Of a stretch of DNA of 64,000 nt, positions 2,271 through 52,337 are shown piece by piece. Source of the DNA: Candidatus Woesebacteria bacterium. GTDB lineage: Bacteria > Patescibacteriota > Microgenomatia > UBA8517. The stretch's first letter is position 1. Each line of letters starts with the position of its first letter. The translations under genes were made by a program, and so were the position numbers. The notes under the pieces were generated by a model, which saw only the letters and a program-made list of their open reading frames with translations, was not told the origin of the DNA and searched no databases. The stretch spans positions 436,790 to 500,789 of the forward strand of contig OY970314.1 in NCBI GenBank assembly GCA_963716475.1, read 5' to 3'.

Positions 2271-2271
2271 A

Positions 2272-6367: not shown

Positions 6368-6391
6368 TTAAAACACTTTTGTAGTCTCCCT

Positions 6392-7663: not shown

Positions 7664-7709
7664 AAAAGTACATATGTTATCACAGATCTAAAACAACCCG
7701 TGAAAAGCG

Positions 7710-14567: not shown

Positions 14568-15229
14568 CTCTTTATCCAATTTTTGTAGTTTTTGTAAAGT
14601 CTGGGGAGTTCGACAAAAACTACCACTCCAAGCACGATTGCATAAGAAATAATTGCAAAAGAATAAAAAGGTTGAACCCTGAAATCAGTCCCGATCAAAA
14701 ATCCGTGGAGTCCGACAATCAGAAAAACCGCATAATTAATTACGTGGAGTTTTCTCCAGTTTGCTCTCATCCATGGGGTAGCTTTCCTAAAAATCCCGGC
14801 AAAAACCGTAATTGATAAAAGCCAAAAAGAAATTCTTCCCAAAGTGTAGTAGTAGTCAATCCGGCTTTGACAAAGCAAACAAACGTCTACAAAAACAAAA
14901 TAGGGATTCCAGCCGATTCCTGCGAAATGATTAAAAACCATAAAAGTTAAAGGGTGCAATAACGCCAGAGAATAAATTATTACTCCTTCAATTACGTGAT
15001 ACTTAAAAACCCATTCCCCTATTATTTTCTGTAGTTTATCCATAAAAGCTCCCAAGATAAGCTGCACAAAAAGTAAGGTAAAAAGAGTCAGTCCCAGAAT
15101 CCTTTGAATATAGTTGGTTAGTGTCGCAGAATTTTTAAGAACCAAAGAGAGTGGTGTTACCTGAAGAGCAGTTATAGGAACCAATAGCAAAAGTACGATA
15201 ACGAAAGCGAAGAAGATAACCTTTTTCAT
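14564..15229 (-). CDS. Polytopic membrane protein with paired His in helices (ferric-reductase/MsrQ-like heme b domain?)
   Basis: 221 aa, about 6 predicted TM helices. His pairs at HVIEG...LHPL and KLHVIN...GLHGF resemble bis-heme ferric-reductase-like transmembrane components. No partner gene is adjacent. Confidence 0.35.
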   Translation of the reverse strand: MKKVIFFAFVIVLLLLVPITALQVTPLSLVLKNSATLTNYIQRILGLTLFTLLFVQLILGAFMDKLQKIIGEWVFKYHVIEGVIIYSLALLHPLTFMVFNHFAGIGWNPYFVFVDVCLLCQSRIDYYYTLGRISFWLLSITVFAGIFRKATPWMRANWRKLHVINYAVFLIVGLHGFLIGTDFRVQPFYSFAIISYAIVLGVVVFVELPRLYKNYKNWIKS

Positions 15230-35683: not shown

Positions 35684-38155
35684 TCAACTCCTGCTTTTTC
35701 CGGCTTTTACAATTTCCGAAAGGTATCTGTAAACTCCGGGGGAACGGACAATGATATCGTAGTCGTTTAAATTTTTGAGATAGCTTTTGTCATACTTTCT
35801 ATCGAGAATAGTAACTTCGTCCCCAAGATCCTTGAAATACTTCTCGGCATCCTGCCCCTCAAGACCGTAGCCAAGAATAGCTATCTTTTTCCCGGATCCG
35901 ATAAATTGGACTTCCGGTTCTAATTTAACTCCAAATTTCTTTTCTACGTCCTGAATTATCATTCTTGAGAGTCCGGCGATATCGGAATAACCGGCCTTAC
36001 CGGATTTGTTTATTAAAATAAGTGAATTTTTGGAAGACACGGCCGCACCCTTATATGTCTTACCTTTCCATCCCGCTTTTTCTATTAACCAACCTGCATA
36101 TAATTTGAATTTATTTCCAAAAGGAAAACTCGGTATCCCGGGAATTTCGGCTTCTACGATAGGATTTTTAAAGAAAGATCCTGCATTGCCGACTTCATTT
36201 GGGTCCTCCAATTTTTCCTGCCTTAAAGTCAGAACCGCATTTCTTATTTGTTCCAGGGAAGGTTTTTTTATATTTTGTTTATTAAGAATGTTTAAGAGAG
36301 ATTCATACTTAACTACCGGGTGTTTATTCCTATTCAATTTAAAAGTTACTGATGTAATCAGATATTTCTGCCAATTTTCCGGCTTTCTGAAAAAACTTTC
36401 TCTATATCCGAATTTACAATCGGCATTTGAAAAGTCTTTAAATTTCCCGGTTTCAAACTCGTAAGCCCTTACATTAAACAATGTGTCTTTGACTTCCTGT
36501 CCGTATGCACCGATGTTTTGAACAGGAGAAGCTCCGACTGTACCCGGAATACCGGACATGCATTCGATACCTTGATATTCATATTTAGCTGCATACTCGA
36601 CCAAATCGTCCCATTTCATTCCTGCTTGAGCTGTTATTTTGACATCTTTTACCTCATTAAGGGCCTCTTCCAGAGTACGGCCGCTGCCTGTAAATTTAAT
36701 CACAACACCGTTAAATTCCTTATCCGAAACTAAAATATCTGTCCCATCCCCTAATACGAAAATCGGTAAATTATTATCCTTTGCGTATTTAGTAGCCATA
36801 TCTATTTCTTTCCTGGTTTTAACTTCAAAATATTTTTTAATTTTTCCGCCGATTCTGAAAGAAGTCATCTCCGAAAACTTCGGTTCAATAATTTTTGCAA
36901 TTTTCCTGGCCCACAAGTAGCTTTTTCCTGCACCCATCACCAAAACTACATCGCCGGGTTTTAAATATTCATTTAAATATAAAAACATTTTACCGGCATC
37001 ACCGAAACAAATTGTGTCTTTATGATTGGATGCTTTAGCTATTGAATTCTCACTGATACCAAAATGCTCGGTATCCCTGGCTTCGAATATCGGGCCGATT
37101 ATAACTTTATCTGCCGAATCAAAAACCCCATTATAATTTGGAAGGAGTGCTTTGGTTCTGGAATATGAATGGGCTTCGTAGATTGCCCAAATTCTTTTAT
37201 CTTTATAGTTCTCTCTTAATGAATCGACTGTCGCTTTAATTGCCGTAGGATGATGGGCATAATCATCGTAAACTCCAATTCCGTTTCTTTCCGAAATTAA
37301 TTCCATTCGTCTGCCTACGCCGGGAAACTCCTCAAGCGATTTGGTAATTACACCTTCATTGATTTTTAAATACCTGCCTAATGCAATCACCCCTAGGGCG
37401 TTTGCAAGATTATGTTTTCCCATAATCTTAAGGTGCAGGTCCAAATTTTTATCTTTTAGTGAATATTTGATTATTTTTAAACCTGAAGTATCAATTTCCC
37501 CCAGCAATTTTTGCACACCGGGAGAGTCGGCGTTTACAATCAACACTTTTTCCCCCACCAAATTCCCGATAAACTTTTTGTAGCTATCAAAGATTTGTTT
37601 TTCCGATTTAAAATAATCCGGATGATCAAACTCTACATTATTCAAAATAATTATCTCCGGATGATAATTTAAAAAATTATCGTAAAACTCATCCGCTTCG
37701 GTTACAAAATATTTTCCTCTCCCAAACCTAGCTCCGCCCTGCCACTCCTTATAATTTGCACCTAGGTTAACCAGAGGGTCCAGTCCCGCGTCGGTTAGAA
37801 GTTTCCCGGCCATTGCTGTGGTGGTTGACTTACCATGAGTCCCTACAACACAAATTACTTTCTTTCCATTATGTAAATACTTACCCAAAAACTCCTGCCA
37901 GGTAATTGATATTCTCCTTTTTTCTCCCACGACCAGCTCGGGATCTTTGAATTTTTGAAAATAAACGGCCGGAGTTACCACCAGCAAATCAATATTTTTG
38001 AGGTGATCCGGTGAATGGCCATGAAAGAATTTATCTGAATACGCAGTACTTTCTTCAAGATCACATCCTGTTACGTTATACCCCATCTTTGAAGAAAGAA
38101 ATGCAATACCGGACATTCCGCTTCCCCCAATTCCCATCAGGTGAATATTTTTCAT
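35684..38155 (-). CDS. murC: Fusion protein: MurC (UDP-MurNAc--L-Ala ligase), MurB (UDP-GlcNAc-enolpyruvate reductase) and the N-terminal Rossmann domain of MurD, all in one frame
   Basis: MurC has MGIGGSGMSGIA and VVGTHGKSTTT. MurB has FRIGGKIKKY FAD-binding and NAGSFFKNP. The last roughly 70 aa, GKKIAILGYGLEGQD...IIVRSPGV, match the MurD N-domain. No stop or start separates the domains. Confidence 0.85.
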   Translation of the reverse strand: MKNIHLMGIGGSGMSGIAFLSSKMGYNVTGCDLEESTAYSDKFFHGHSPDHLKNIDLLVVTPAVYFQKFKDPELVVGEKRRISITWQEFLGKYLHNGKKVICVVGTHGKSTTTAMAGKLLTDAGLDPLVNLGANYKEWQGGARFGRGKYFVTEADEFYDNFLNYHPEIIILNNVEFDHPDYFKSEKQIFDSYKKFIGNLVGEKVLIVNADSPGVQKLLGEIDTSGLKIIKYSLKDKNLDLHLKIMGKHNLANALGVIALGRYLKINEGVITKSLEEFPGVGRRMELISERNGIGVYDDYAHHPTAIKATVDSLRENYKDKRIWAIYEAHSYSRTKALLPNYNGVFDSADKVIIGPIFEARDTEHFGISENSIAKASNHKDTICFGDAGKMFLYLNEYLKPGDVVLVMGAGKSYLWARKIAKIIEPKFSEMTSFRIGGKIKKYFEVKTRKEIDMATKYAKDNNLPIFVLGDGTDILVSDKEFNGVVIKFTGSGRTLEEALNEVKDVKITAQAGMKWDDLVEYAAKYEYQGIECMSGIPGTVGASPVQNIGAYGQEVKDTLFNVRAYEFETGKFKDFSNADCKFGYRESFFRKPENWQKYLITSVTFKLNRNKHPVVKYESLLNILNKQNIKKPSLEQIRNAVLTLRQEKLEDPNEVGNAGSFFKNPIVEAEIPGIPSFPFGNKFKLYAGWLIEKAGWKGKTYKGAAVSSKNSLILINKSGKAGYSDIAGLSRMIIQDVEKKFGVKLEPEVQFIGSGKKIAILGYGLEGQDAEKYFKDLGDEVTILDRKYDKSYLKNLNDYDIIVRSPGVYRYLSEIVKAGKSRS
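35689..35708. repeat. 10-nt near-perfect tandem duplication (minus strand AAAAGCCGGA / AAAAGCAGGA) at the murD frameshift point
   Basis: Read directly in the sequence. Removing either copy joins the murC-murB-murD' frame to the 'murD frame. Confidence 0.7.
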
Positions 38156-39693
38156 CGCTCAATTCTTAGAACTCTTCCCTTAAAGGCTTCTCTGGCAGCT
38201 TCTTCATCGGACCAAGGATATTCCTTTAGGCCATAGGCCATACTTCTTTCGTGACCTTTACCGCAAATCACGACAGTATCTCCCGGCTTTGCCAGTTTCC
38301 TGATTGCATAATAAACAGCCTCCCCGCGCTCGGGAATCTTCAGAAAATACTTAGACTTTTCATTATCAATTTTTAAATTCTTGGAAATTTCAACCGCTCC
38401 CTGGGACCTGGCACCTGATGCGATTCTATTAATGATTGCGGTGACTTTTTCACTCCTCGGATCCTCTGCAGTAATAACGGATATATCGGAAATTTTTCCT
38501 GAAATTTTTCCCATTTCCCTCCTCTTACTTTTGTCTCTTTCCCCGGCACAACCAAAAACCGAAATAAGCCTGCCCTGAGTAACTTTCCTGAGATAAGTCA
38601 AAACATTTAAAAGAGCGTTTGGCGTATGCGCAAAGTCGATAAAGACCTTAAAACTCTGACCTAAACTCACTTCCTGCAATCTCCCTGCCGGGGAATCAAA
38701 TGACCGGATTGCTTTAACTACCCGTTGAACCGGAATATCGTATATTTCAGCCACACTTATGGCCGCCATCATATTTGAAACGTTGTATTTGCCGTGAAGG
38801 TTACTGACAATTTTTGCGGGGTGTCCTTCATAATAGATATTAAATTCAAGTCCTTTTTGTGTATCTTCAATTTCCCTTGCCCTGGCGTCTACGTTACCTT
38901 TCAAACTATAAAAAAATACTTTCGTTTTTCGCGGTAACAACTTTTGTATCACTTTCCACGATTTATCATCTTTATTCAGCACTACCGTATTTTTGGCTAA
39001 CTTCAAAAAAGAAATTTTTACTTTTCTATAATTATCAAAATTCTTATGATAATCGAGGTGGTCGTGCGTAATATTGGTCAGGGCTGCCGTATCAAAATCT
39101 ACCCCGGCTATCCTTTGCTGATCAATACCGTGTGAGGTTACTTCAATAACTGCGTATTCGCAACCGGACTCAACCATTTTAGCCAAAAACGCCTGAAGTG
39201 AAACCGGGTCGGGATTTGTAACATGTAAACCTGTATCGAATTCCTTTTTCCCTACTTTGGCAAGAATTGTAGAAACTAAACCGACTTTCATACCGGCTGT
39301 AGCCAAAATGTGATAGATAAGATGACATGTTGTTGTCTTTCCGTCGGTTCCCGTTACTCCTATTATCTTTAGCTTCCTTGAGGGATACCCAAACCATGCA
39401 GCGGCCAGAACTCCCAAAACCTTCCTTGTATCGGCAACAACAATATATGTGGCATCGTTTGTATTTTCCGGTACTTTCTCACAGACAACCACGCTTGCGC
39501 CACTTTTTACCGCCTGCTTAATAAAATTATGACCGTCAAAATTTATACCCCTTACGGCAACGAAAATATAATCCTTTCCTACCTGCCTCGAGTCAGCGGT
39601 AATACCACGGGTAGAAGTATCGGAGCTTCCAAATAACTCAAATTTACCTATGTCTTTCAGTAAACTCCCGATCTTTTTCTTCATAGCCTCCAC
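38152..39693 (-). CDS. murE: UDP-MurNAc-L-Ala-D-Glu--diamino acid ligase
   Basis: P-loop IIGVTGTDGKTTT. Diamino-acid specificity region TAEDPRSE is DNPR-like. 513 aa. ATGA overlap with murC. Confidence 0.85.
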   Translation of the reverse strand: MEAMKKKIGSLLKDIGKFELFGSSDTSTRGITADSRQVGKDYIFVAVRGINFDGHNFIKQAVKSGASVVVCEKVPENTNDATYIVVADTRKVLGVLAAAWFGYPSRKLKIIGVTGTDGKTTTCHLIYHILATAGMKVGLVSTILAKVGKKEFDTGLHVTNPDPVSLQAFLAKMVESGCEYAVIEVTSHGIDQQRIAGVDFDTAALTNITHDHLDYHKNFDNYRKVKISFLKLAKNTVVLNKDDKSWKVIQKLLPRKTKVFFYSLKGNVDARAREIEDTQKGLEFNIYYEGHPAKIVSNLHGKYNVSNMMAAISVAEIYDIPVQRVVKAIRSFDSPAGRLQEVSLGQSFKVFIDFAHTPNALLNVLTYLRKVTQGRLISVFGCAGERDKSKRREMGKISGKISDISVITAEDPRSEKVTAIINRIASGARSQGAVEISKNLKIDNEKSKYFLKIPERGEAVYYAIRKLAKPGDTVVICGKGHERSMAYGLKEYPWSDEEAAREAFKGRVLRIER

Positions 39694-39779
39694 GCACGCC
39701 CCCTATTATACTAAATTCCCCGAACAAAGGCTTTCCCACAGGGTGAATTAGCACCTCCGTTAAGATATAATACGCCTGT

Positions 39780-40925
39780 ATGATCCTATATGAATTCGAA
39801 GGTAAGAAGATTCTCGCAGAAAATGGAATCAGCGTACCCCGCTCGATATTGGCCACATCACCCCAACAATTGGTAACTCTTCAATTTCCGGTAATACTCA
39901 AGGCTCAGGTACTTTCCGGAAAAAGAATGGAAGCCGGAGGAATAATCGAGGTCAAGAATAAAAAAGGTCTTAAAAAATCACTGTCTGACCTTTTTTCCAA
40001 AAACATAAACGGGGAACAGGTGAAAGCAGTTCTTATTGAGGAGAAATTACACTTCAGCAGTGAATATTATCTCTCGATATCTTACAATTCCGATTTACGT
40101 TCACCCGTGATCACCTTTTCAGAAAAAGGCGGTACCGGTATTGAAAAAAGGGGTGCTAAAATTATAAAAGTGGATCCTATTACTGGGGATTTTAACAAAA
40201 AGGAGTTTCCGGAAATAGTTTCAAAAGTTTTACCGCAAATCTTAAAAATCTTTTTTGAGAATGATTGCCTTCTTACGGAGATAAATCCGCTTATTGTTTC
40301 CGAGGGACTTTTAACGGCCCTTGACGCAAAAGTCAGTCTTGACGATTGTGCTTTGGAACGTCATAAGGAAAGAGTCTTTCCGGGAAGATCCGTTCCGGGA
40401 CACGTAGCCAGCAAAAACGAAGTCGAGGCAAAAAAAATTGACGAAAACGATTACCGGGGTACGGCCGGTTCTACTTATTTTGACTTAGACGGCGACATTG
40501 CGGTTCTGGCTTCAGGCGGAGGGGCATCATTAACCGCAATGGATGCTTTGCTGGCCGCCGGCGGAAAACCCGCAAACTATACCGAATACTCGGGGAACCC
40601 TCCCAAAGAAAAGGTTGAAAAATTGACAAAAATTGTACTTTCAAAAAAGGGGCTGCATGGCCTTTGGGTGGTTGGGGCAATAGCAAATTTTACCGATATT
40701 TACGAAACATTATCTGGGCTTGTCGAGGCTTTAAGAAATCTTACTCCCAAACCCGTTTTTCCAATTGTCATCAGGCGCGGCGGCCCGAATGATGAAAAGG
40801 CCTTTGAGATGCTCAAAAAAGTCAAGGATTTTGAACTTCATCTCTACGGTCAGGAAACTTCCATTACGGAGTCTGCTGAAATTATTGCCAACCTGGCAAA
40901 AAAATATGTTACTACTACCAAATAA
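39780..40925 (+). CDS. Succinyl-CoA synthetase beta-subunit-like ATP-grasp protein (SucC/AclB/CcsA family)
   Basis: ATP-grasp N-terminus ILYEFEGKKILAENGISVP. C-terminal CoA-ligase block AVLASGGGASLTAMDAL...GGKPANY. 381 aa. Confidence 0.75.
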   Translation: MILYEFEGKKILAENGISVPRSILATSPQQLVTLQFPVILKAQVLSGKRMEAGGIIEVKNKKGLKKSLSDLFSKNINGEQVKAVLIEEKLHFSSEYYLSISYNSDLRSPVITFSEKGGTGIEKRGAKIIKVDPITGDFNKKEFPEIVSKVLPQILKIFFENDCLLTEINPLIVSEGLLTALDAKVSLDDCALERHKERVFPGRSVPGHVASKNEVEAKKIDENDYRGTAGSTYFDLDGDIAVLASGGGASLTAMDALLAAGGKPANYTEYSGNPPKEKVEKLTKIVLSKKGLHGLWVVGAIANFTDIYETLSGLVEALRNLTPKPVFPIVIRRGGPNDEKAFEMLKKVKDFELHLYGQETSITESAEIIANLAKKYVTTTK

Positions 40926-41802
40926 TGCCAAGTTAATCGGTCAGGGTTTAACGGGTTCTGAAGGAAGCAGATCCCTGCCCTTAATGCTTTCCTACGGAAC
41001 AAATATAGTAGCCGGAGTTACACCCGGAAAAGGCGGACAAATAGTTAATAAAATTCCTATTTTTAATTCCGTTAAAGAAGCTATCGATTCCGTCGGTCCC
41101 GTAGACGGTTCTGTTCAATTTGTTCCACCGCTCTTTACAAAAAGTGCCGTTTTTGAAGCCCTTGATGCGGGTATAAAATTTATACTGATCGGTGCAGAAA
41201 AAGTTCCCGTTAGGGATGCTGCAGAAATATACGCTTATGCCGGGAAGCTCAACGCAAATGTTATCGGTCCGAGTTCTGTAGGCATAATAAACCCCGAAAA
41301 AAGATTAAAAATCGGAGAAATCGGAGGACAAAACCCGGACCGGGTTTTTACCAAGGGCAATGTGGCCATAATATCAAAATCCGGAGGAATGACTTCTGAG
41401 ATAGGACTATTACTTAAAAACAATAACCTTGGCATTTCCTGGGCTGTAGGTATCGGCGGGGATAGAATTATTTCAACTGATTTTGCAGATTTTCTTTTGG
41501 AACTCGATAAAGATAAAAAAACGGAAGCGTCCGTAATCTTCGGAGAACTTGGCGGTACATATGAAGAAAGAGTTGCCCGCCTGGTTAAAAATGGGAAAAT
41601 TAAAAAACCTGTTATTGCTTTTGTCGCGGGTGAATTTACAGCCAGTTTACCCGGCAATGTACAATTTGGCCATGCGGGAGCTATTATAGAAGGTAAGAGA
41701 GGACTTCCTTCTGAAAAAAGAAGGGTCTTACGGGAATCCGGAGTTTTGGTTGCAGATAATTTTGACGAGATTCCTAATCTGGTTATAAAATCAATCCAAT
41801 AA
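40906..41802 (+). CDS. Succinyl-CoA synthetase alpha-subunit-like protein (SucD/AclA-N/CcsB family); start refined to ATG 40906
   Basis: IGQGLTGSEGS CoA-binding motif. Phospho-His loop QFGHAGAII. About 298 aa from the internal ATG. The track ORF begins 141 nt earlier in a region overlapping sucC. Confidence 0.8.
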   Translation: MLLLPNNAKLIGQGLTGSEGSRSLPLMLSYGTNIVAGVTPGKGGQIVNKIPIFNSVKEAIDSVGPVDGSVQFVPPLFTKSAVFEALDAGIKFILIGAEKVPVRDAAEIYAYAGKLNANVIGPSSVGIINPEKRLKIGEIGGQNPDRVFTKGNVAIISKSGGMTSEIGLLLKNNNLGISWAVGIGGDRIISTDFADFLLELDKDKKTEASVIFGELGGTYEERVARLVKNGKIKKPVIAFVAGEFTASLPGNVQFGHAGAIIEGKRGLPSEKRRVLRESGVLVADNFDEIPNLVIKSIQ

Positions 41803-42467
41803 TGGCAATAACAATAAAACATATTGATGGTATTCCCTATTTCGGAAAAGAAAACCTTTTGGAAATTGCCCCAAATATCAATTTCTCCGAAATGATTTTT
41901 GAACTTTTAAGTACTAAAAGACCAAATGAAGCCGAGTCGAAAATTTTCGAAACTATACTCAATCTTTCGATTGATCATGGAGAAGAAACTCCTTCTGCAA
42001 TTAAAACTATCGGGGCAGCAAAGGGAGGAAAAACCATTTCCGAGTCGGTCTCCGCAGGAATTTTACAAATAAACGACATGCACGGCGGGGCAATCGAACC
42101 GGCGATGAATCTTTTTTATAAAATAAAAAACGAAAAATTAGATATCAAAAAGGTTGTTGATGATTATCTGGATAATGACAGAAGAATGCCTGGATTCGGA
42201 CATAGAATTTACGATATTGATCCGAGAGCTCAGCTTATTTTTAAATTGGCAAGACAGCAGAATATTTCAGATGAATTTATTGAAATTGCACAAAGTTTGG
42301 AAAAGAGCCTTAAAAGTGCCAAGGGCAAACCCATTCCCGTTAACATCGACGGAGCCATCGCTTCGATTCTTTGCACCTTCGGCTGGAATTCTAATCTTGG
42401 CAATGCGGTCTTCATTATTGCCAGGATTCCGGGCCTTTGCGGTCAATTTTTGAATAACTCAAAATGA
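41802..42467 (+). CDS. Short citrate-synthase-like protein (citryl-CoA lyase / ACL C-terminal domain-like)
   Basis: The GFGHRIYD box matches the citrate-synthase catalytic His motif GFGHRVY. 221 aa, far shorter than citrate synthase. TAATG overlap with the sucD-like gene. Confidence 0.55.
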   Translation: MAITIKHIDGIPYFGKENLLEIAPNINFSEMIFELLSTKRPNEAESKIFETILNLSIDHGEETPSAIKTIGAAKGGKTISESVSAGILQINDMHGGAIEPAMNLFYKIKNEKLDIKKVVDDYLDNDRRMPGFGHRIYDIDPRAQLIFKLARQQNISDEFIEIAQSLEKSLKSAKGKPIPVNIDGAIASILCTFGWNSNLGNAVFIIARIPGLCGQFLNNSK

Positions 42468-43255
42468 AAAATCTCTCCGACTTCCGGCCAAAAGGTATTC
42501 TGCTTGACGTTGACGGAACTCTGGTAAATTCAAAAAAGACCGTTTCTGTTAATACCATAAACGCTATTAAAAAAATTATTGATAAAGGTATTAAAGTCGG
42601 CGTTTCCACGGGACGAAGTTACCCCTCTCTCGCAAATTACATACTTCCTATGTTTCCTCCGGAATCATTACACATAATCGCGGGGGGAGGGCAGATTGTT
42701 AAAGGTTCCGGCGAAATTGTTTGGGAAAAGAATCTGGCGTCAGCGGCCGTTAAACTTATATGCCAAACCGCTGAACGTCTGGGTGGAAAATTTGCCTTCG
42801 GACAGGGAAAAATACTTTATTGCAGCGGCGGGCTTTTGCAAAAGTATGCCGGTCATCCCTGGAAAATTAAAGTCAGGCCGATATTCGGTATCGGCAATTG
42901 GACGACCCCGTTAATTTCATTGCAGAATATCAATCAGGAAATTTTTACATTTTTAAAAGAGCCTGACATAAACATTTTTTTCACCGAAACATCTTTTGAA
43001 AAAGCCCTGGACGTAACGGCGGCAGGTGTTAATAAACTTTCTGCTGCCAAAATCTGGTCGGAAATGCTGGGTTTAACTTTGAAAGATATTATGAGTATCG
43101 GGGATAGTGTAAACGACCTGGAACTGATTCGGGGTTCAGGATTTTCCGTGGCAATGGGTCAGTCCCCTGAAATATTAAAATCGCATGCGGACACTGTAAT
43201 CGGAAATGTTGATGAAGACGGGTTGGCTGCCTTTTTGGAAAAATTTACCTCGTAA
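42464..43255 (+). CDS. HAD-superfamily hydrolase, Cof/IIB subfamily
   Basis: Motif I LLDVDGTLVNS, motif III K, motif IV GDSVND. 263 aa. Confidence 0.7.
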   Translation: MKNLSDFRPKGILLDVDGTLVNSKKTVSVNTINAIKKIIDKGIKVGVSTGRSYPSLANYILPMFPPESLHIIAGGGQIVKGSGEIVWEKNLASAAVKLICQTAERLGGKFAFGQGKILYCSGGLLQKYAGHPWKIKVRPIFGIGNWTTPLISLQNINQEIFTFLKEPDINIFFTETSFEKALDVTAAGVNKLSAAKIWSEMLGLTLKDIMSIGDSVNDLELIRGSGFSVAMGQSPEILKSHADTVIGNVDEDGLAAFLEKFTS

Positions 43256-44453
43256 AAATCGTTCCCGGCATAACTATGGTTTCCTCCTTGATTACTGCTC
43301 CGGGATTTGTTCCGGAGTGTATCCCTATTTTTACCCTGTCCCCGATTAGGGCACCAAAATAAGAAGATTTCGTATCAACCGTTTCCCCCTTTATTTGGAC
43401 TCCCACATCGCCCCTGTCCAAACGCCGGTTGGCGGTAATAAATCCGGCTCCGATCCGGACATCCTCGCCGATAATGCTGTCCCCGATATAGCCGGAGTGA
43501 ATATGTGTATTCTTACCGATAAGCGAGTGTTTAACCTGAACGGCATTTTGAAGTTCAACCCCTTCCTCAAGTACCGATTCTTTCCCTACTTTGCAGTAAC
43601 TTCCGACAATGGCATTTCTTCCTATATAACAAGGGCCGTCGATTATTGCGTAATCAAAGATTTTTGCGCCTTCCTCAATAATGACGGGGCCTCTTAAAAT
43701 TGCGCTTGGAGCTATTTCGCAGCCTTTTTTAGATACTGCCTTATCGGCAATCTTAGAAAAACGGTAATGGATAATATCAAATAGATCCCAGACATATTTG
43801 AGTGAGAGTGCCGGCTCCTTGCTCTCTATCATGAAAACTTCCTTTTCCCGGGAGTATTTATCCAGTCCGTCCTCGAACTGATACTGCGAATTCTGAATGG
43901 TCTTAAGAAAATCGGTAAAGTCCTTCGTCAGAATATATATTCCCAAGACTCTTTTATCGGAAAGTCCCGTAATATCTTCCGGTTTCTCTACGACTCCCTT
44001 AACTCTTCCGCCCTCAAGTTTTAACATGCCATACTTTTGGGGTTCATCGGTTGTCTGCCCAAAAAGAACCACCCCTTCTCCCTTGTCCAAAAATTTAAGA
44101 TGTTCCCCGACGTTTATTTGCTGGGAGTTTATCAAAAGAAATCTCTCGTCCGGTATGACACCAGATTCCAAAATTGCATTAGCCCCTCCGAGTGGTTCCT
44201 TTTGGTCATGGAAAAAGACGGGTACTTTTATATCTGATGTTTCTATCAGTTTTTTGATCGCCAGGTCACGGGGCGATTTGATAATCTCGATCCTTTTCAC
44301 TCCCGTTCCGGCCAAACTACGGATCGTTTGGACAATCAACGGCTCACCAAAAACGGAGAAAGTACCCTTATGTCTGGCCCTCCTGAACGGTTCAAAACGG
44401 GTGTTTTCACCCGCGGCTAAAATAACTGCCTGTTCCGGAATACTGTTCGGCAT
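43245..44453 (-). CDS. Sugar-1-phosphate nucleotidyltransferase fused to left-handed beta-helix acyltransferase (GlmU-like / archaeal-type bifunctional)
   Basis: N-terminus AVILAAGENTRF NTP-transferase motif. The C-terminal roughly 150 aa carry hexapeptide repeats (IGRNAIVGSYCKVG, IGEDVRIGAGF). 402 aa. Confidence 0.65.
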   Translation of the reverse strand: MPNSIPEQAVILAAGENTRFEPFRRARHKGTFSVFGEPLIVQTIRSLAGTGVKRIEIIKSPRDLAIKKLIETSDIKVPVFFHDQKEPLGGANAILESGVIPDERFLLINSQQINVGEHLKFLDKGEGVVLFGQTTDEPQKYGMLKLEGGRVKGVVEKPEDITGLSDKRVLGIYILTKDFTDFLKTIQNSQYQFEDGLDKYSREKEVFMIESKEPALSLKYVWDLFDIIHYRFSKIADKAVSKKGCEIAPSAILRGPVIIEEGAKIFDYAIIDGPCYIGRNAIVGSYCKVGKESVLEEGVELQNAVQVKHSLIGKNTHIHSGYIGDSIIGEDVRIGAGFITANRRLDRGDVGVQIKGETVDTKSSYFGALIGDRVKIGIHSGTNPGAVIKEETIVMPGTIFTR

Positions 44454-44468
44454 AGCTTAATTTAATCA

Positions 44469-45530
44469 TCAATCCAAGCGAATCTCAATAACACTTGCAT
44501 CGTCCCTCGGTTTTAATCTGGGAATTTTATCAAATTCCGGGTCCTCATCCAACTTCTCCGCTCCCTGCTCAAGAACTGAGCCAAAAGAGTTTTTCCCAAA
44601 CATATTGATAAATTCTCCAACCGACCACTCCATCGAACTTCCTTTTTCCCTGTAGGGAAGAAGCGCCCCGTCTGAATATAAATAAATCGATGATAATTTA
44701 TCGGAAATTTCAAATTCATCGCTATAAATCAAATGATTTTCAATAAGCTCCGGCATTCCGTTTAATATTCCGCATCCGCCCTTGGAATTTATTTTCCTGC
44801 GAAATGAATCTTGCAGTTGCAGCTTCACTTTTGACCAGACATTTTCATCTGTACGAACCTGCCTGAGGCTGATGCCGCCCTCTTTGGCTAAACTTTTGGC
44901 ATATTCAAATGTTTCCCGGTCAAATTTTTCGTTCAAATTGGGTGTCAAAATACTGACAGTACCGTCACTTTCATATTTTGCCGCGGAGGAATCGGCCGCC
45001 TGTGCCAAACTCGCCTTTTTCTGTCGGGAATCAATAACTAAAAACACCGCTGCCATTCCCGGAACAGTAAGAACATCGTTATAATCAACACCCTGAACTT
45101 TTTTCATTTCCCCCTGAATCCAGGAGTTAACATTAATCATTACGTCTTTTGCGGATACGTTTTCTTTATCGCACATATCTTTATATACCTGTGCGCTTTT
45201 AAAACCCAGTGATACAATGTGTGATAAATAAAAAGCGCCGGAAATTTTATCGGGAGTGAGCCCTGCAATATCTTTTTGACAAGAGGCTCCATCCAAAACT
45301 GCAAACAAGGTTCGACCCTCACCCATCGGCAGAATCATTAAAGAATCCTCGTTTAGCTGTTCCGGTTTGGCCGCCAAGGTCTCTGCAAAATAAATACCTG
45401 AGTGAAAACGGTTTCTTTCCTGTCCTTTCTGAATATTATCTGTCTCGGCAGTCCTAAGAAACCAAAACAAAGGTTTATCACCTAATTTTTTTAATCTATC
45501 ATCATCTGAAGAGTTTCTTGGTCTTTCCAT
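44469..45530 (-). CDS. PP2C/PPM-like protein, probably degenerate (lacks the DGxGG metal-binding glycine pair)
   Basis: QLNEDS...LFAVLDGASC and the C-terminal IYLYSDGAL echo PP2C motifs 1, 2 and 8. Key residues are substituted. 353 aa. Confidence 0.35.
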   Translation of the reverse strand: MERPRNSSDDDRLKKLGDKPLFWFLRTAETDNIQKGQERNRFHSGIYFAETLAAKPEQLNEDSLMILPMGEGRTLFAVLDGASCQKDIAGLTPDKISGAFYLSHIVSLGFKSAQVYKDMCDKENVSAKDVMINVNSWIQGEMKKVQGVDYNDVLTVPGMAAVFLVIDSRQKKASLAQAADSSAAKYESDGTVSILTPNLNEKFDRETFEYAKSLAKEGGISLRQVRTDENVWSKVKLQLQDSFRRKINSKGGCGILNGMPELIENHLIYSDEFEISDKLSSIYLYSDGALLPYREKGSSMEWSVGEFINMFGKNSFGSVLEQGAEKLDEDPEFDKIPRLKPRDDASVIEIRLD

Positions 45531-45539: not shown

Positions 45540-45863
45540 TTATATAACTTCCGGCGTCACTTTCATGGATGAAAAAGTGGAAACTGCATTTTTTGGATCA
45601 CCTATGTATATAGGGAATCCCGGAGCCTTCACTAAGTTAATCAATATTTCATTCTCATCCTGCCTGACAAGAAGTGAGTAGTGAACACCGAATCCCTCAT
45701 GGGCTTCCGGATAAACCATAAAATTTGTTTTAACTTTGGGGAATTTCTTATCTATTTCACTTTTGATTTTTATCACCGAATCACGGCAATTATTTGCGTC
45801 TGTTATTGAATCATCTCCCTGAACAAGTTCTCTTACATATCCCGTTATATTTTCCAAAGACAT
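45540..45863 (-). CDS. Hypothetical protein (107 aa)
   Basis: ORF in operon position between nagB-like and PP2C-like genes. No recognisable motif. Confidence 0.3.
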   Translation of the reverse strand: MSLENITGYVRELVQGDDSITDANNCRDSVIKIKSEIDKKFPKVKTNFMVYPEAHEGFGVHYSLLVRQDENEILINLVKAPGFPIYIGDPKNAVSTFSSMKVTPEVI

Positions 45864-45868: not shown

Positions 45869-46660
45869 TTATTTACCGAGAAGACTACCCGCTTCCCGGT
45901 CAATTATAAAAGTTACATTTGGGTGCAATCTCAAAAATGAAGCCGGAGCCTCTGATCCGATTGGCCCTTTCAGGGTTCTTTGAATACCCTGGGCTTTCTG
46001 AAGGCCTTTAGCAATTAGAACAATCTTCTTCGAATCCAAAATATCTGCAACACCCTGGGTTATTGCCTTTTGAGGAACTTTATTTTCATCACCGTCAAAA
46101 AATCTGGCATTAGCTTTTATGGTCTCTGCGTCAATCTGAACCACCCTTGTACGGGAATCGTATGCCGAACCCCGCTCATTGAAAGCAATATGACATGTTA
46201 ATCCGGGTCCGATACCGACAATTGCAAGATCTGAGGGGCCTGTCAATGCCAAAACTAACTGATAACGGGTCACTTCCTCCTCCGGGTCTTCTGCAGCGGA
46301 GTTAGGAATAAATCTCCGGTTCTCAGGAATGTTAACATGGTTAAATAAATTATCTCTCATAAATGTGTCATAACTTTGGGGGTGATTTTTAGGCAAAGGC
46401 CAATATTCATCCAAGTTTCTGGTAGTTACACCGCTCATGTCCATTCCTTTTTTATTTGCGTCGATCATCAAACCGTAAAGTCCTAGCGGTGAAGATCCTG
46501 TCGCTAAAGTAAAAACGGATTTGGGGTTCTCCATAATCTGATCTTCTAAAATTGAAAAAGCATATTTGTCTACAATTTCGGGTGAAGGAAGTAAAACAAT
46601 TTCGGGATTGTAGACTCGAAGATGCTCGTATGAACTTGGATTTAAATTTTCAACTGCCAC
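45869..46660 (-). CDS. nagB: Glucosamine-6-phosphate deaminase / 6-phosphogluconolactonase family protein
   Basis: NagB/Pgl fold motifs FTLATGSSPL and IVLIAKG. 263 aa. Confidence 0.65.
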   Translation of the reverse strand: MAVENLNPSSYEHLRVYNPEIVLLPSPEIVDKYAFSILEDQIMENPKSVFTLATGSSPLGLYGLMIDANKKGMDMSGVTTRNLDEYWPLPKNHPQSYDTFMRDNLFNHVNIPENRRFIPNSAAEDPEEEVTRYQLVLALTGPSDLAIVGIGPGLTCHIAFNERGSAYDSRTRVVQIDAETIKANARFFDGDENKVPQKAITQGVADILDSKKIVLIAKGLQKAQGIQRTLKGPIGSEAPASFLRLHPNVTFIIDREAGSLLGK

Positions 46661-47997: not shown

Positions 47998-49773
47998 CTA
48001 TTTTACAGTTACGGATTTTGCGAGATTGCGCGGCTTGTCCGGATCCAAACCTTTTTTTATAGTCAGATAATAGGCAAGAAGCTGTGCGGCAACAACATTC
48101 GGAATAATTGTGGCTTCCCCGGCATCAGCAACATGCATATAGTAGTCAAAGACCTCGTGGGGTTTATAGGAAATCCCGATAACTACGCCTCCCCGGGCTT
48201 TCATCTCCATTGCTCCGGCGAGATTTGCTCCGTAAGTTTCATCGTTTGGCAAAAAAGTTATACATGGAGTTCCCTTCTCGACCAATGCCAGAGGTCCGTG
48301 CTTTAGTTCTCCGGCAGCCAGGCCTTCTGCATGAATATAGGAAATTTCCTTAATCTTTAAAGCCGTTTCAAGGCTTGCCGGGTAGGAAAGCCCGCGCCCG
48401 ATTACATAAACATGTTTCCTTTCCGAAATTCTTGAAGCCAACCTCCTAATTTTCTGCAAAGACTTCGGCAATAATAACTGCCTAACCGATCCGGCTGCTG
48501 CCATTAGTGCTTCCTGACCTTCCTTTACTCCGCTATTTAGAGAGTAGGCAAGGAGAATGAGATGCGCCAGCATACCGGTAAAAGCTTTGGTTGAAGCAAC
48601 CGCCTGCTCGGGTCCGGCTTCAATTAACATTTTGTAATCCGATAGACGGTAAAGGGAAGATCCTGAAACATTAACGAGACTCAGGATTTTTGCACCCCTT
48701 TGCTTGGCCTTTTTAACCGACTCCAGAATATCCATAGTTTCACCGGACTGCGAAACTGCAATAACTAAACTGTGATTGTCCAGGAAATCAAGATGATATC
48801 CGAACTCGCTGCCGATTGCCGGGTTCACATGCCTTTTAGCCACCTTCGAAAATAAATACGTACCGGCAAGACAAGCATATGAAGCTGTCCCACAACCCAC
48901 CAGATACGTCCCCCGCGCCTCTCTGACTATTTTTGCCATCTGACGGGCCTGTGAAGCCCCATTTCGTGCAATATTGGTAATTATATGAGGCTGCTCAAAA
49001 ATTTCCTTAAGCATATAGAATTTATATTTCCCTTTTTCGCCTTGCTCCTCCTTCCCGTCAAGTTTACTTATTTTAGGTATAACTTTTCTCCCGGTTTTGG
49101 TATTAAAAATCATAACCTCCCCGGGAGTAAGCACAGCCATTTCATTATCTTCAAGGAAATAGACCTCTCTGGTATGGGAAAGTAGAGCGGAAGAGTCGCT
49201 TGCCAAAAAATTTTCGTTTTTTCCGAATCCGATTACCAAGGGAGAACCGTTTCTGGCCGCTACAAGCAGATTCTTTTTTGCGCTAATCGCAATCATTGCA
49301 TTAAGTCCTTCCATCCGGTTAAATGCTGCCATTACGGCATCGGGAAAAGACTTGTTTTTAGAAAGATCCTCAATCAAATGTGTTAACGTCTCCGTGTCGG
49401 TTTCGGAAATAAATTTATGGCCTTTTTTCAGAAGCTTTCTTTTAATCCCCTCATAGTTTTCAAATATACCGTTATGGATAACGGCTATCGTACCGCTACA
49501 ATCAAGGTGGGGGTGGGCATTTATATCCGTTACCCCCCCATGAGTCGCCCAACGTGTATGACCAAAGGAGAGAGAACCGTTTGGTAAGTCGTCAACATTT
49601 GCATTTCCGATTTTACCGGCTTTCTTCTTGACGGCAATCGTATCTTTATCAGCGTTTGGAATCACACCGACTCCCCAACTATCATAACCCCGGTACTCAA
49701 GCTTCTTTAAACCACTAAAAACAATTTTCTGGGCATCGCGCCTGTAGCCGATATAGCCAAATATTCCGCACAT
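47998..49773 (-). CDS. glmS: Glutamine--fructose-6-phosphate aminotransferase
   Basis: N-terminal nucleophile MCGIFGY. Two SIS domains. 591 aa. Confidence 0.9.
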   Translation of the reverse strand: MCGIFGYIGYRRDAQKIVFSGLKKLEYRGYDSWGVGVIPNADKDTIAVKKKAGKIGNANVDDLPNGSLSFGHTRWATHGGVTDINAHPHLDCSGTIAVIHNGIFENYEGIKRKLLKKGHKFISETDTETLTHLIEDLSKNKSFPDAVMAAFNRMEGLNAMIAISAKKNLLVAARNGSPLVIGFGKNENFLASDSSALLSHTREVYFLEDNEMAVLTPGEVMIFNTKTGRKVIPKISKLDGKEEQGEKGKYKFYMLKEIFEQPHIITNIARNGASQARQMAKIVREARGTYLVGCGTASYACLAGTYLFSKVAKRHVNPAIGSEFGYHLDFLDNHSLVIAVSQSGETMDILESVKKAKQRGAKILSLVNVSGSSLYRLSDYKMLIEAGPEQAVASTKAFTGMLAHLILLAYSLNSGVKEGQEALMAAAGSVRQLLLPKSLQKIRRLASRISERKHVYVIGRGLSYPASLETALKIKEISYIHAEGLAAGELKHGPLALVEKGTPCITFLPNDETYGANLAGAMEMKARGGVVIGISYKPHEVFDYYMHVADAGEATIIPNVVAAQLLAYYLTIKKGLDPDKPRNLAKSVTVK

Positions 49774-50067: not shown

Positions 50068-51087
50068 CTACCGACTACTAGTCAAACCGCTTACCAAAGC
50101 CAAAATGGCCATGCGAAGTTTATTCTGATCATGTCGTATCATGCTACGGTTAAGCCCGTCCCCTTTAACTCTTTCCGCAATTTTTCTTGAGAGTAAATCA
50201 GTCCTTATAATTTTAACTCCGGCAGAAATATGTTTATCAGTCAAGTCGTCATTAACCGGAACTGCGCTCTCCTTTTCATAAGCCTTAATTGCCGGCCTGG
50301 GAAAACTGTAATTGTTGTTAACTAAAACATAATTTATAAGTTTCAGAGGCATATATTTCTTCAAGTCTTCAAAAAAATCCGACAATGCGTAATCGGGCGT
50401 TTCGGAGACTGAGTCCATCAAATTTGCAATAAATAAAATTTTTCCTTTAGTTTTCTTTAATGCCGGCACCACACCGTCAACAATTAGATTGGCAACTGTA
50501 TTCGTATAGAAATCCCCGGGCCCCATTATTATTAAATCCGCATTTAGTATTGCCAACCGGGCCTCCGGATTAAGTTTTGCAACAGGGATTGTTTTTAATT
50601 CTGTTATTCTTAGACCGCCTTTGCGTTGAGGAACATCTATATTGTGCTCACCTATAATTTTCGATCCGTCTTCATATTCGGCCACGAGTCGCACGTCGGT
50701 GTAACTTATCGGAATAATATCTCCCTCAACTTGAAGAAGACGACAGGTCTCTTCAATCCCTTTCTTTTGGGAACCCATGATATCCGCCATTGCCGCCATA
50801 AATAAATTTCCGAATGTCATTCCCTCAAGACCTGCTCCTCCCTGATGATAACGATATGTAAACAATTTTCTTAAAACGGTTTTATTTTTTGACAATGCGA
50901 CAATCGCCTGTCTGATTCCCGACGTCGGCAGCAAACCAAACTCATCACGTATCACACGATTTGAACCCCCTTCATCAACCATAGTCATTAACATACTTAT
51001 TTTGACCGGGGCACTGCTTAATCCCGAGGCTACAACATAAGAACCTGTGCCTCCCCCTAAAATAACAATGTTTGGCATTTCGCTCAT
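50068..51087 (-). CDS. yvcK: YvcK/CofD-family gluconeogenesis-factor-like protein (UPF0052)
   Basis: IVILGGGTGSYVVASGL N-terminus typical of YvcK/CofD. 339 aa. Confidence 0.75.
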   Translation of the reverse strand: MSEMPNIVILGGGTGSYVVASGLSSAPVKISMLMTMVDEGGSNRVIRDEFGLLPTSGIRQAIVALSKNKTVLRKLFTYRYHQGGAGLEGMTFGNLFMAAMADIMGSQKKGIEETCRLLQVEGDIIPISYTDVRLVAEYEDGSKIIGEHNIDVPQRKGGLRITELKTIPVAKLNPEARLAILNADLIIMGPGDFYTNTVANLIVDGVVPALKKTKGKILFIANLMDSVSETPDYALSDFFEDLKKYMPLKLINYVLVNNNYSFPRPAIKAYEKESAVPVNDDLTDKHISAGVKIIRTDLLSRKIAERVKGDGLNRSMIRHDQNKLRMAILALVSGLTSSR

Positions 51088-52337
51088 TCTTTTTTATAAA
51101 TTTCCGCTCCAAGCAACTTCAGTCTTTCATCTATTTTTTCATAGCCCCGGGCAACTATTTCCACATTTTCAATTTCACTTTTTCCTGAAGCCGCAAGAGC
51201 GGCCAAAATAACCGAAATACCGGCTCTGATATCTTTACAAAACAGCCTGTCACTCAGAAGCGGGGTGGGTCCGCTGACAATAACCCTATGCGGGTCGGCG
51301 ATAAAAATTTTAGCACCCATTGAAATTAAATCATCTACAAAAAACATTCTCCATTCATACATCCAGTCGTGACAAACCACAGTCCCGGCTGTCTGGGTGG
51401 CAAGGACGATAAAAGGACTCATAAGATCCGTTGGGAAGCCCGGCCATGGTCTGGTTTGAAATTTAGACCTTGAGGCGATCAATTTTGAAGGAAGAACGGT
51501 AAGTGAATTTTGCGAAGTCTTAAAATTTACCCCCATATAAGAAAGATAATTTAATATCATGGGGCATTCCTCCGTTTTAAAATCCTCGATTTTAATTTCG
51601 CCCCCGGTTATTGCCGCCGCAATCGCAAATGTTCCTCCTTCAATGTGGTCAGGACAAACCTTATATTCCACCCCTTTCAGTTTCCCTCCGGAAACATTTA
51701 AAACATTCGATCCGATACCGTCAATTTTTACTCCCATCTTTACCAAAAAATTCGCTAAATCGGTAACATGGGGCTCTGTTGCTGCGTCTTCAATTTTCAT
51801 CCTCTCTGATATTGAACAGGCCATCATAAGTCCCATTTCAGTAGCCGTTACGGACGGTTCGTCAAGAAAAATATCCTTCGACTTCCTGTCTTTCCAGTCC
51901 AGGTAGTATCTTCCGTCTTCTCGTCGGATTGTAACTCCCATTTTCTGCATCATGGCAAAGTGAGTATCGAGAAGCCTTTCCCCAATCTGATCTCCTCCGG
52001 GCGGGGTAACGATAGCTTTTCCGAAACGGACCAATAGGGGAGCTGCCAGAACCACCGAAGCCCTAAATTTACTTGAAAGGTCCGGGTCAAGATCAAAAGA
52101 GGTCAGGCCTTTCGGGTCAATCGTTACGGAGTGATCCTCCCGTTTCACTCTTACTCCAAGCCTGGCGACAAGATCAAGCATAACCGACACATCTGAAATA
52201 TCGGGAATATTGGTAATGGTTGAAGGAGAATCGGCCAAAAGTGCCGCAGGAATAAGCTTTAAAGCTGAATTTTTATTGCCGGAAAGCCTGATGGTTCCCT
52301 CAAGCTTTTTGCCACCTGTAACTATGAATTTCGCCAT
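51084..52337 (-). CDS. murA: UDP-N-acetylglucosamine 1-carboxyvinyltransferase
   Basis: MAKFIVTGGKKLEGTIRLSGNKNSALKLI matches the MurA N-terminus. 417 aa. Confidence 0.9.
   Translation of the reverse strand: MAKFIVTGGKKLEGTIRLSGNKNSALKLIPAALLADSPSTITNIPDISDVSVMLDLVARLGVRVKREDHSVTIDPKGLTSFDLDPDLSSKFRASVVLAAPLLVRFGKAIVTPPGGDQIGERLLDTHFAMMQKMGVTIRREDGRYYLDWKDRKSKDIFLDEPSVTATEMGLMMACSISERMKIEDAATEPHVTDLANFLVKMGVKIDGIGSNVLNVSGGKLKGVEYKVCPDHIEGGTFAIAAAITGGEIKIEDFKTEECPMILNYLSYMGVNFKTSQNSLTVLPSKLIASRSKFQTRPWPGFPTDLMSPFIVLATQTAGTVVCHDWMYEWRMFFVDDLISMGAKIFIADPHRVIVSGPTPLLSDRLFCKDIRAGISVILAALAASGKSEIENVEIVARGYEKIDERLKLLGAEIYKKE

Follow-up and report, generated by a model that had tools for sequence, protein, structure and literature searches.

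How does a bacterium that shows no tricarboxylic acid (TCA) cycle come to carry what looks like a citrate-cleaving enzyme system, and what would such a cell do with the products? The question is raised by three plus-strand open reading frames (ORFs) that fill positions 39780-42467 of a 64,000-nucleotide stretch of contig OY970314.1, from a Candidatus Woesebacteria bacterium (assembly GCA_963716475.1); we analysed the whole 64-kb stretch and call it the window. The three ORFs encode a SucC-like protein (ORF A), a SucD-like protein (ORF B) and a protein of 221 amino acids (aa) with the citrate synthase fold (ORF C), and successive genes overlap. A preliminary description, made from the DNA alone, had drawn attention to them, to the loop GHAGAI in the second protein and to the box GFGHRIYD in the third, and had compared them with the two-step citryl-CoA synthetase (CCS, CcsAB) and citryl-CoA lyase (CCL) system or with a split ATP-citrate lyase (ACL). 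The three genes and both motifs are present where it placed them.

On balance, we favour the view that the module belongs to the CCS/CCL-ACL family, works as a split system that cleaves citrate at the expense of ATP, and feeds acetyl-CoA to amino-sugar N-acetylation. The parts of this proposal are not equally secure. Membership in the split CCS/CCL-ACL family is very probable; the predicted reaction, cleavage of citrate to acetyl-CoA and oxaloacetate, appears likely; and the proposed physiological role, supply of acetyl-CoA for amino-sugar N-acetylation, is put forward tentatively.

The closest named homologues of the module proteins belong to Microgenomates and Woesebacteria, within the candidate phyla radiation (CPR, or Patescibacteria), whose members are host-associated. 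CPR bacteria and DPANN archaea have a minimal metabolism. Homologues of the module are already named in databases: NCBI and JGI use citryl-CoA lyase, citryl-CoA synthetase large subunit and ATP citrate lyase citrate-binding domain-containing protein, and other sources use citrate synthase, succinyl-CoA synthetase or acetate--CoA ligase family. A survey of DPANN archaea lists ACL, CCS and CCL in a few metagenome-assembled genomes (MAGs) without a complete TCA cycle. According to a 2022 preprint (bioRxiv 10.1101/2022.10.25.513756), CPR and DPANN sequences annotated as succinyl-CoA synthetase (SCS) or citrate synthase are monophyletic with CCS and CCL. It also reports that Nanohaloarchaea have, of all enzymes of the reductive TCA (rTCA) cycle, only CCS and CCL, and proposes a syntrophic rTCA cycle shared with their haloarchaeal hosts. 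For the eukaryotic enzyme ACLY, it is currently disputed whether the module with homology to citrate synthase is catalytic or allosteric.

Results

Citrate-site signature of the synthetase subunits

ORF A, the beta subunit, combines an ATP-grasp domain (ATP-grasp_2, PF08442, 2e-26) with a C-terminal half that matches Citrate_bind (PF16114, 7e-26, 91 bits against a cut-off of 26.8) and not Ligase_CoA, and thus has a domain of the ACL/CCS type and not of the SCS type. Among solved structures its best match is CcsA (6hxq_B, 7e-51), followed by Chlorobium limicola AclB (2e-35) and SCS beta (2e-30). In an alignment of sequences from CPR, DPANN, Aquificae and Nitrospirae with those of ACL and SCS (E. 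coli SucCD among them), residues G272, N303, T305 and R332/R333 are the equivalents of ACLY G309, N346, T348 and R379 (the ACLY numbering was checked), which the literature gives as its citrate-binding positions. These residues are invariant across the CPR, CcsA and AclB sequences and are replaced in SCS.

The three citrate-site segments read ANYTEYSGNPP, ANFTDI and IRRGGP in the window protein; ANYAEYSGDPP, ANFTDV and VRRGGP in ACL; ANFTDIGGNPP, ANNTRI and VRRNGP in CCS of Aquificae and Nitrospirae; and ANFLDVGGGA, NIFGGIVRCD and VRLxGTN in SCS. DIGG and the Arg of NTR, the states found in Aquificae, are similar to those of SCS, so that EYSG and FTD look like derived states common to the CPR/DPANN type and ACL.

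ORF B, the alpha subunit, matches CoA_binding (9e-19) and Ligase_CoA (1e-11) and carries the phospho-histidine loop FGHAGAI, with the phospho-histidine at His256. Upstream of the GHAGA of this loop, a three-residue insert is shared by the window protein, CCS and ACL and is missing from SCS; the aligned region is AGEFTASLPGNVQFGHAGA in the window, AGRFQESLEGVSFGHAGA in CcsB and AGR---TAPPEKRMGHAGA in SCS.

Fold and catalytic residues of the lyase

ORF C matches Pfam Citrate_synt (6e-31) over profile positions 143-346 of 357 only. In phmmer comparisons with the PDB, the Hydrogenobacter thermophilus CCL (6hxp) scored 1.6e-40, the best citrate synthase 7e-18 and the CCL modules of ACL about 1e-16. 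A model built with AlphaFold2 on 44 homologues reached a predicted local distance difference test score (pLDDT) of 93.9 and a predicted template modelling score of 0.89. In Foldseek it superposed on 6hxp with a template modelling (TM) score of 0.94 and a root-mean-square deviation of 1.7 A, on the CCL modules of ACL with TM 0.88-0.90 and on citrate synthases with TM 0.70-0.76. The third protein therefore does have the citrate synthase fold on which the preliminary comparison with citrate-cleaving enzymes depended.

Residues H59, H94, H134, R135, R142, D183 and R208 are invariant in the 44 homologues (57-70% identity), and they align with catalytic or substrate-binding residues of citrate synthase and of ACLY (H900, H975/R976, D1026, R1065). 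The box GFGHRIYD occupies residues 131-138. All citrate synthase models of NCBIfam left the lyase far below their cut-offs, and the protein is conserved in more than 1000 sequence clusters.

Phylogeny

Distance-based neighbour-joining (NJ) trees with 100 bootstraps, of the kind that the preliminary description had proposed as a check, resolved the groups for one of the three proteins. In the beta-subunit tree SCS stands apart (100%), Aquificae and Nitrospirae CCS form a clade of their own (100%), ACL forms another (100%), and a split with 89% support unites the CPR/DPANN sequences with ACL; the window protein does not join CcsA of Aquificae and Nitrospirae. The rooted topology is (SCS,(Aquificae/Nitrospirae CCS,(ACL, CPR/DPANN))). 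In the lyase tree the relations among CPR/DPANN, Aquificae/Nitrospirae and ACL sequences do not resolve, and the alpha-subunit tree behaves likewise. The CPR/DPANN type provisionally looks like an unfused sister lineage of ACL, a placement that is provisional because the trees are NJ only. Both labels of the preliminary description thus appear to fit, since the genes are arranged as in CCS/CCL systems and the beta subunit resembles ACL in motifs and in the NJ tree; fold, citrate-site motifs, alpha insert, gene organisation and tree all speak for the likeness that it saw.

Organisation of the locus

The junctions of the module overlap by 20 nt (ccsA/ccsB), by 1 nt (ccsB/ccl, TAATG) and, with the following phosphatase gene, by 4 nt (ccl/HAD, ATGA), so that one operon, as had been proposed, is the natural reading. 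The last overlap, in which the ccl stop codon meets the HAD start codon, is consistent with translational coupling. For the SucD-like ORF the listed start is a TTG at 40765, and the part that aligns with SCS and CCS alpha subunits runs from the ATG at 40906 (298 aa); in a public gene call the start is another TTG, at 40885, which gives 305 aa.

The HAD phosphatase mentioned in the preliminary description is of the Cof-type HAD-IIB family (Table 1). We considered it as a conserved fourth member of the module and rejected this, as no HAD-IIB homologue was found beside the module in the other loci from our scan of GTDB species. A different family, HAD_2, recurs within the glmS-type clusters described below.

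A perfect TATAAT hexamer (window 39760-39782) ends 8 nt 5' of the ccsA ATG, at a site that a generic promoter scan missed, and no obvious Shine-Dalgarno sequence was seen upstream of the ccsA start; the module transcript may be leaderless or nearly so. A promoter and terminator scan of 39400-43600 gave 11 sites against 7.8 expected.

Distribution and gene order in relatives

In a pattern scan that took one genome from each GTDB species, at least 589 relatives of ORF A emerged, of which the best 80 were analysed. Among these 80, the CPR and DPANN relatives are 40-61% identical to ORF A and come from Woyke-, Lloyd-, Taylor-, Jorgensen-, Magasanik-, Curtiss- and Nomurabacteria and Minisyncoccota, and from Woesearchaeota and Nanoarchaeota; CCS of Nitrospirae and Aquificaceae is 34% identical, and ACL of Chlorobi, Nitrospira and Nitrospina 30%. 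Two collections, one of them an independent set from a metagenome scan that gave the same picture of gene order, supplied about 70 loci of the CPR/DPANN type, and most of these have ccsA-ccsB-ccl contiguous and in this order. ACL loci consist of aclB and an aclA of about 610 aa.

Several CPR loci have an extra gene between ccsB and ccl: a NUDIX hydrolase in one (L016:10016-10492), which might act on CoA or acyl-CoA, a 350-aa ORF with no Pfam match in another (L025:9998-11050), and small ORFs in four more (L010, L095, L100, L108). Many MAG records titled 'uncultured Gammaproteobacteria' or 'Candidatus Saccharibacteria' (L002, L003, L005, L008, L010, L014 and others) carry the CPR-type ccsA-ccsB-ccl, 40-61% identical to that of the window; these titles are probably placeholder or wrong taxonomic labels.

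Genes around the module

Pfam scans of essentially all other ORFs of at least 90 aa in the window, which takes up 64 kb of its roughly 983-kb contig, revealed no other TCA genes, in keeping with the preliminary description, and no aconitase, isocitrate dehydrogenase or citrate exporter. What these scans did return were genes for peptidoglycan synthesis (the dcw cluster), nucleotide sugars, glycosyltransferases and housekeeping functions only. On the opposite strand, convergent with the module, lie genes for a GlmU-like enzyme, a NagB-like enzyme, a GT4 glycosyltransferase, GlmS, a YvcK-related protein and MurA (Table 1).

When neighbouring ORFs were clustered over 32 loci and the recurrent clusters annotated, GlmS, GNAT acetyltransferases, YvcK/CofD-related proteins, HAD_2 hydrolases and sugar-1-phosphate nucleotidylyltransferases recurred, as did archaeal-type bifunctional GlmU, TrmB regulators, DegT sugar aminotransferases and glycosyltransferases. 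About 55 CPR/DPANN loci could be evaluated for genes no more than 8 kb from the module: glmS was present in 14, GNAT in 19, a GlmU-type acetyltransferase of the left-handed beta-helix (LbH) family in 13 and yvcK in 11, and at least one acetyltransferase in 32. The expectation for a gene present once in a genome of some 1 Mb is roughly 2%; the binomial P is about 1e-11, a value that ignores shared ancestry. The link between module and sugar genes is carried by at least five different architectures (Table 1). Three unrelated kinds of acetyl-CoA-dependent sugar N-acetyltransferase adjoin the module, in different lineages as well as in both domains, and this is explained most economically if the module supplies their acetyl-CoA.

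Table 1. Features of the window (coordinates in the window) and gene orders at related loci
Feature	Position or locus	Strand	Basis
ccsA/aclB-like beta (large) subunit, 381 aa	39780..40925	+	ATP-grasp domain and ACL-type citrate-binding domain (Pfam, PDB matches)
ccsB-like alpha (small) subunit, 298 aa	40906..41802	+	Pfam CoA_binding and Ligase_CoA; FGHAGAI loop
ccl-like citryl-CoA lyase, 221 aa, short form without C-terminal Arg arm	41802..42467	+	PDB 6hxp, AlphaFold2 model
Cof-type HAD-IIB phosphatase	42464..43255	+	Hydrolase_3 1.5e-41; TIGR00099 141.7 > 137
MurE, divergent from module	38152..39693	-	Mur_ligase domains
GlmU-like archaeal-type bifunctional sugar-1-phosphate nucleotidylyltransferase/acetyltransferase	43245..44453	-	NTP_transferase and Hexapep; ST0452 5z09 8e-39; TIGR03992 269 bits, cut-off 292
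NagB-like glucosamine-6-phosphate deaminase/isomerase	45869..46660	-	Glucosamine_iso; TIGR00502 226 bits, cut-off 237
GlmS, glutamine--fructose-6-phosphate aminotransferase	47998..49773	-	GATase_6/7 and two SIS domains
YvcK/CofD-related UDP-GlcNAc-binding protein	50068..51087	-	CofD 8e-66; TIGR01826 233 > 196
MurA, UDP-GlcNAc enolpyruvyl transferase	51084..52337	-	EPSP_synthase family 5e-66; position in dcw cluster
glmU-like-glmS-ccsA-ccsB-ccl	L023 (Woesearchaeote)		
glmS-ccsA-ccsB-(NUDIX)-ccl-GNAT-HAD-yvcK	L016, L102		
TrmB-HAD-NTP-transferase-glmS-yvcK-GNAT-ccsA-ccsB-ccl	L018, L099, L105		
glmS-ccsA-ccsB-ccl-GNAT within dcw cluster	L086 (Microgenomates relative, short lyase)		
GNAT divergent from ccsA	L012, L022, L093, L095, L097, L101, L110, L123		
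Stand-alone GlmU acetyltransferase domain directly upstream of ccsA	L091		Bacterial GlmU positions 248-438, 232 bits
Stand-alone GlmU acetyltransferase domain (C-terminal half of archaeal GlmU) directly upstream of ccsA	L106, L116, L013		170-180 bits

Two ORFs between the GlmU-like and NagB-like genes of the window, of 353 aa (44469-45530, -) and 107 aa (45540-45863, -), match nothing significantly in Pfam, NCBIfam or the PDB; in the larger there are PP2C-like motifs, FAVLDGAS, LYSDGAL and DDASVIEI, and a faint match to PP2C_2 (E 0.04).

Other features of the window and of one related locus concern the envelope genes themselves. An 823-aa MurC-MurB fusion ORF (35684-38155, -) ends in the N-terminal Rossmann domain of MurD (KKIAILGYGLEGQ...), with the remainder of MurD in another frame (...KAGVEITSSLKIFFDKCPGKIIGITGTKGKGT..., ORF 34672-35547, -). 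Here a triple fusion, MurC-MurB-MurD, seems to be broken by a 1-nt frameshift near 35685-35700, which may be an assembly error or real. In the related Microgenomates genome (L086), a 686-aa ORF fuses MurE to an NTP_transferase domain (L086:12194-14254, -), which is another fusion tying peptidoglycan ligases to nucleotide-sugar enzymes, and a MurL-type epimerase lies between MurC-MurB and MurD (L086:2333-3589, -). The first 15 kb of the window (1-15000) form a polysaccharide and nucleotide-sugar cluster with a RmlD-like enzyme, UDP-glucose dehydrogenase, epimerases, GT2 and GT4 glycosyltransferases, TylF and C-methyltransferases and a flippase. The cluster has a clearly lower GC content, 0.34-0.37 against 0.41-0.46 elsewhere in the window, which suggests a horizontally acquired or fast-evolving glycan locus.

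Discussion

We suggest that the beta subunit, with its ATP-grasp and citrate-binding domains, and the alpha subunit, with its CoA-binding domain and phospho-His256, would together convert citrate, ATP and CoA to citryl-CoA by a phospho-histidine and citryl-phosphate mechanism, and that the 221-aa protein would then split citryl-CoA into acetyl-CoA and oxaloacetate. Its citrate source would presumably be a host or the environment. In an organism that shows no TCA cycle, such a module would be an anabolic acetyl-CoA generator. Its acetyl-CoA could go to the N-acetyltransferases of the UDP-N-acetylglucosamine (UDP-GlcNAc) and amino-sugar pathway, for peptidoglycan and envelope glycans. Candidate consumers are the GlmU-like enzyme in the window, and GNAT or stand-alone GlmU acetyltransferase domains elsewhere.

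Several observations weigh against this proposal and have to be set beside it. First, the protein families are not a clean match. None of the three reaches the curated cut-offs that NCBIfam sets for its SCS and citryl-CoA lyase models, the best model for the lyase (NF004869) giving 163.5 bits against a cut-off of 212; the proteins belong to an uncurated and uncharacterised branch. The alpha subunit matches an archaeal SCS alpha (2yv2, 2e-67) slightly ahead of CcsB (6hxq_A, 7e-60), and its NJ tree, as described, leaves the three groups unresolved. Second, no citrate transporter or oxaloacetate-consuming enzyme was seen near the module. Third, shared ancestry is left out of account in the association statistics, and a few of the sampled loci are near-duplicates. 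The link with sugar genes is also not universal and is weaker among the closest relatives of the window: six loci have none (L002-L006, L008), and in Woesebacteria the order is dnaG-rpoD-ccsA-ccsB-ccl with no sugar genes (L084:4931-10672, L085:4952-10666), dnaG-rpoD being the context of a macromolecular-synthesis operon. When the neighbouring GNATs were tested as glucosamine-6-phosphate N-acetyltransferase (GNA1), the matches were weak and non-specific, with RimI the best.

The lyase itself provides the last point on this side. The window protein belongs to a short-form subclade of about 221 aa, together with those of five related loci (L002, L005, L007, L009, L019) and the top database matches of about 220 aa. 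Short-form lyases end at ...GLCGQFLNNSK and lack the C-terminal arm, ...EEx3EKPVRRLx5Yx(G)..., which is kept in other CPR/DPANN lyases, in Nitrospirae Ccl (KPVRR) and in ACL (...RLIRL...) and which aligns with the IARPR motif of E. coli GltA. In citrate synthases this arm donates an Arg to the active site of the partner subunit. Judged by alignment, loss of the arm is the main structural departure of the window lyase from its characterised relatives. Because the Arg arm is gone, a modified substrate or an obligatory complex remains conceivable.

How far does the missing arm favour a different substrate? The module could act on another hydroxy- or dicarboxylic acid, such as malate, citramalate, methylcitrate or itaconate, and yield acetyl-CoA or another short acyl-CoA. 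The arm that the short lyase lacks is the one whose Arg in citrate synthases helps to bind a carboxylate of oxaloacetate or citrate, and a clade that is uncharacterised, with all three proteins under the curated family cut-offs, leaves some room for such chemistry. However, no variation is seen at any of the four ACL citrate-site positions of the beta subunit, nor in the oxaloacetate-binding or catalytic residues H59, H134, R142, R208 and D183 of the lyase, and the long-form members of the clade keep the Arg arm. From these long-form relatives, citryl-CoA is most likely the ancestral substrate, and we regard a change of substrate as unlikely.

A second question is the direction of the reaction. 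The module could run from acetyl-CoA and oxaloacetate through citryl-CoA to citrate and gain ATP by substrate-level phosphorylation; the ACL of Desulfobacter postgatei reportedly works as an energy-conserving citrate synthase. [quoted passage not shown] Against this, the recurrent neighbours are consumers of acetyl-CoA (GlmU-type, GNAT) together with glmS, and not makers of oxaloacetate or users of citrate, and the window holds neither the aconitase and isocitrate dehydrogenase nor the exporter through which citrate might leave. We therefore think the reverse direction quite improbable, and keep to citrate cleavage.

Citrate cleavage might instead be the missing step of an rTCA cycle shared by episymbiont and host. 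The host-associated lifestyle of CPR bacteria would suit such an arrangement. It has been proposed in the preprint, which describes CCS and CCL as the sole rTCA enzymes in Nanohaloarchaea and related DPANN/CPR. That proposal is speculative, and it needs an exchange of acetyl-CoA, which does not cross membranes. Moreover, the surroundings of the module carry no carbon-fixation signal, its neighbours being envelope-sugar genes, and we give the idea very little credence.

That the locus is an ordinary SucCD pair beside a truncated or degenerate citrate synthase, with the ACL resemblance an artefact of annotation, is the least probable reading of all and largely refuted: SCS alpha chains are the best PDB matches of the alpha subunit, SCS models are the best NCBIfam models for both subunits and some sources name the homologues succinyl-CoA synthetase or citrate synthase, but the SCS models reach only about half of their cut-offs (beta, TIGR01016 183 against 376 and NF001913 177.5 against 370; alpha, TIGR01019 276 against 353), the beta C-terminal half is of the Citrate_bind type, three SCS substrate-site motifs are replaced by ACL/CCS ones, SCS stands apart in the tree, and the 221-aa protein forms an entire CCL domain, modelled with confidence, in which the catalytic residues are intact and which is conserved in more than 1000 sequence clusters. 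Malate thiokinase with malyl-CoA lyase (MtkAB/Mcl) was ruled out as well, since the malate--CoA ligase beta model gives the beta subunit 116 against a cut-off of 604 and the lyase has the citrate synthase fold, not the HpcH/CitE aldolase fold.

A more far-reaching version of our proposal is possible, if rather doubtful. In this version the module is a dedicated acetyl-CoA generator that runs on scavenged citrate and is coupled physically or transcriptionally to GlmS, to GlmU-type or GNAT acetyltransferases and to YvcK; it is the unfused sister of ACL, and its short lyase may work only within an ACL-like complex or on a modified substrate. If this were true, ACL would descend from an anabolic enzyme of acetyl-CoA supply, a function that ACLY retains in eukaryotes, and not from a carbon-fixation enzyme.

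The module itself is already known to databases and to the preprint, and the window module belongs to the family of CPR/DPANN homologues of CCS and CCL described there. What is new here, at the level of hypothesis, is the ACL-like signature, the short lyase and the link to the sugar pathway. The preprint reads CCS and CCL as part of a shared rTCA cycle, and these three features are absent from the part of its text available to us; no paper tying CCS/CCL genes to hexosamine synthesis was found in the literature that we searched. An orphan citrate cleavage beside the UDP-GlcNAc pathway offers a testable answer to the question of how such cells obtain a central building block, namely that the acetyl-CoA for their cell-wall sugars comes from host or environmental citrate. 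A natural split ACL, closer to ACL than the Aquificae system is, could also inform the dispute over a catalytic or allosteric role of the ACLY module and the order of the gene fusions behind ACL. We believe that the value of the present analysis lies in this functional hypothesis and in the choice of an experimental target.

Comparison with known systems

Citrate synthases of type II and of archaea (for example 1vgp, 6abx, E. coli GltA) share with the window lyase the fold of the catalytic core and the His-His-Asp/Arg residues. They are full-length proteins of about 370-430 aa, whereas the window lyase corresponds to the C-terminal core only and is missing both the N-terminal half and the C-terminal arm with its RP motif, and the structural match is looser (TM 0.70-0.76).

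SucCD of E. coli and Thermus and the archaeal enzymes (2yv1/2yv2) belong to the same superfamily and have the same subunit architecture and phospho-histidine GHAGA mechanism, and the window alpha subunit is 44-45% identical to archaeal SCS alpha. Unlike them, the window beta subunit has a C-terminal domain of the ACL citrate-binding type and lacks the SCS motifs GGGA, NIFGGI(V/T)R and VRLxGTN, and the alpha subunit has the CCS/ACL insert and scores under the curated SCS cut-offs.

H. thermophilus CcsA/CcsB and Ccl (6hxq, 6hxp) are, like the window proteins, three separate polypeptides with equal domain content. Among solved structures they are the closest to the beta subunit and the lyase; they also have the same alpha insert, and the two-step chemistry is predicted to be the same. 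The window proteins are only 34-41% identical to them, the beta motifs are ACL-like (EYSG in place of DIGG, ANFTD in place of ANNTR), and the lyase lacks the C-terminal Arg arm. In Aquificaceae loci ccsA stands alone, whereas the window genes form a tight operon, and the window organism is a non-autotrophic CPR bacterium in which a TCA cycle is not visible.

With ACL (AclB/AclA of Chlorobium limicola, 6hxj, and Methanothrix, 6hxi, and eukaryotic ACLY), the module shares the beta motifs SGGGAS, ANY(T/A)EYSG(N/D)PP, ANFTD and RRGGP, the NJ sister relation of the beta subunit (89%) and a lyase that superposes on the CCL modules (TM 0.88-0.90). It differs in its low identity (about 30%), in having the alpha subunit (298 aa) and lyase (221 aa) as separate ORFs where AclA is one polypeptide of 609-616 aa, in keeping the citrate-synthase-type His94 where ACL has Phe, and in lacking the C-terminal arm that ACL retains. 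A single 1024-aa ORF across aclB and aclA in a Nitrospinota MAG, UBA9963 (L056:7986-11057, +), is either a fully fused single-chain ACL, as in eukaryotes, or the result of a missing stop codon. With eukaryotic ACLY in particular, the window module has in common the role that we propose for it, an anabolic supply of acetyl-CoA.

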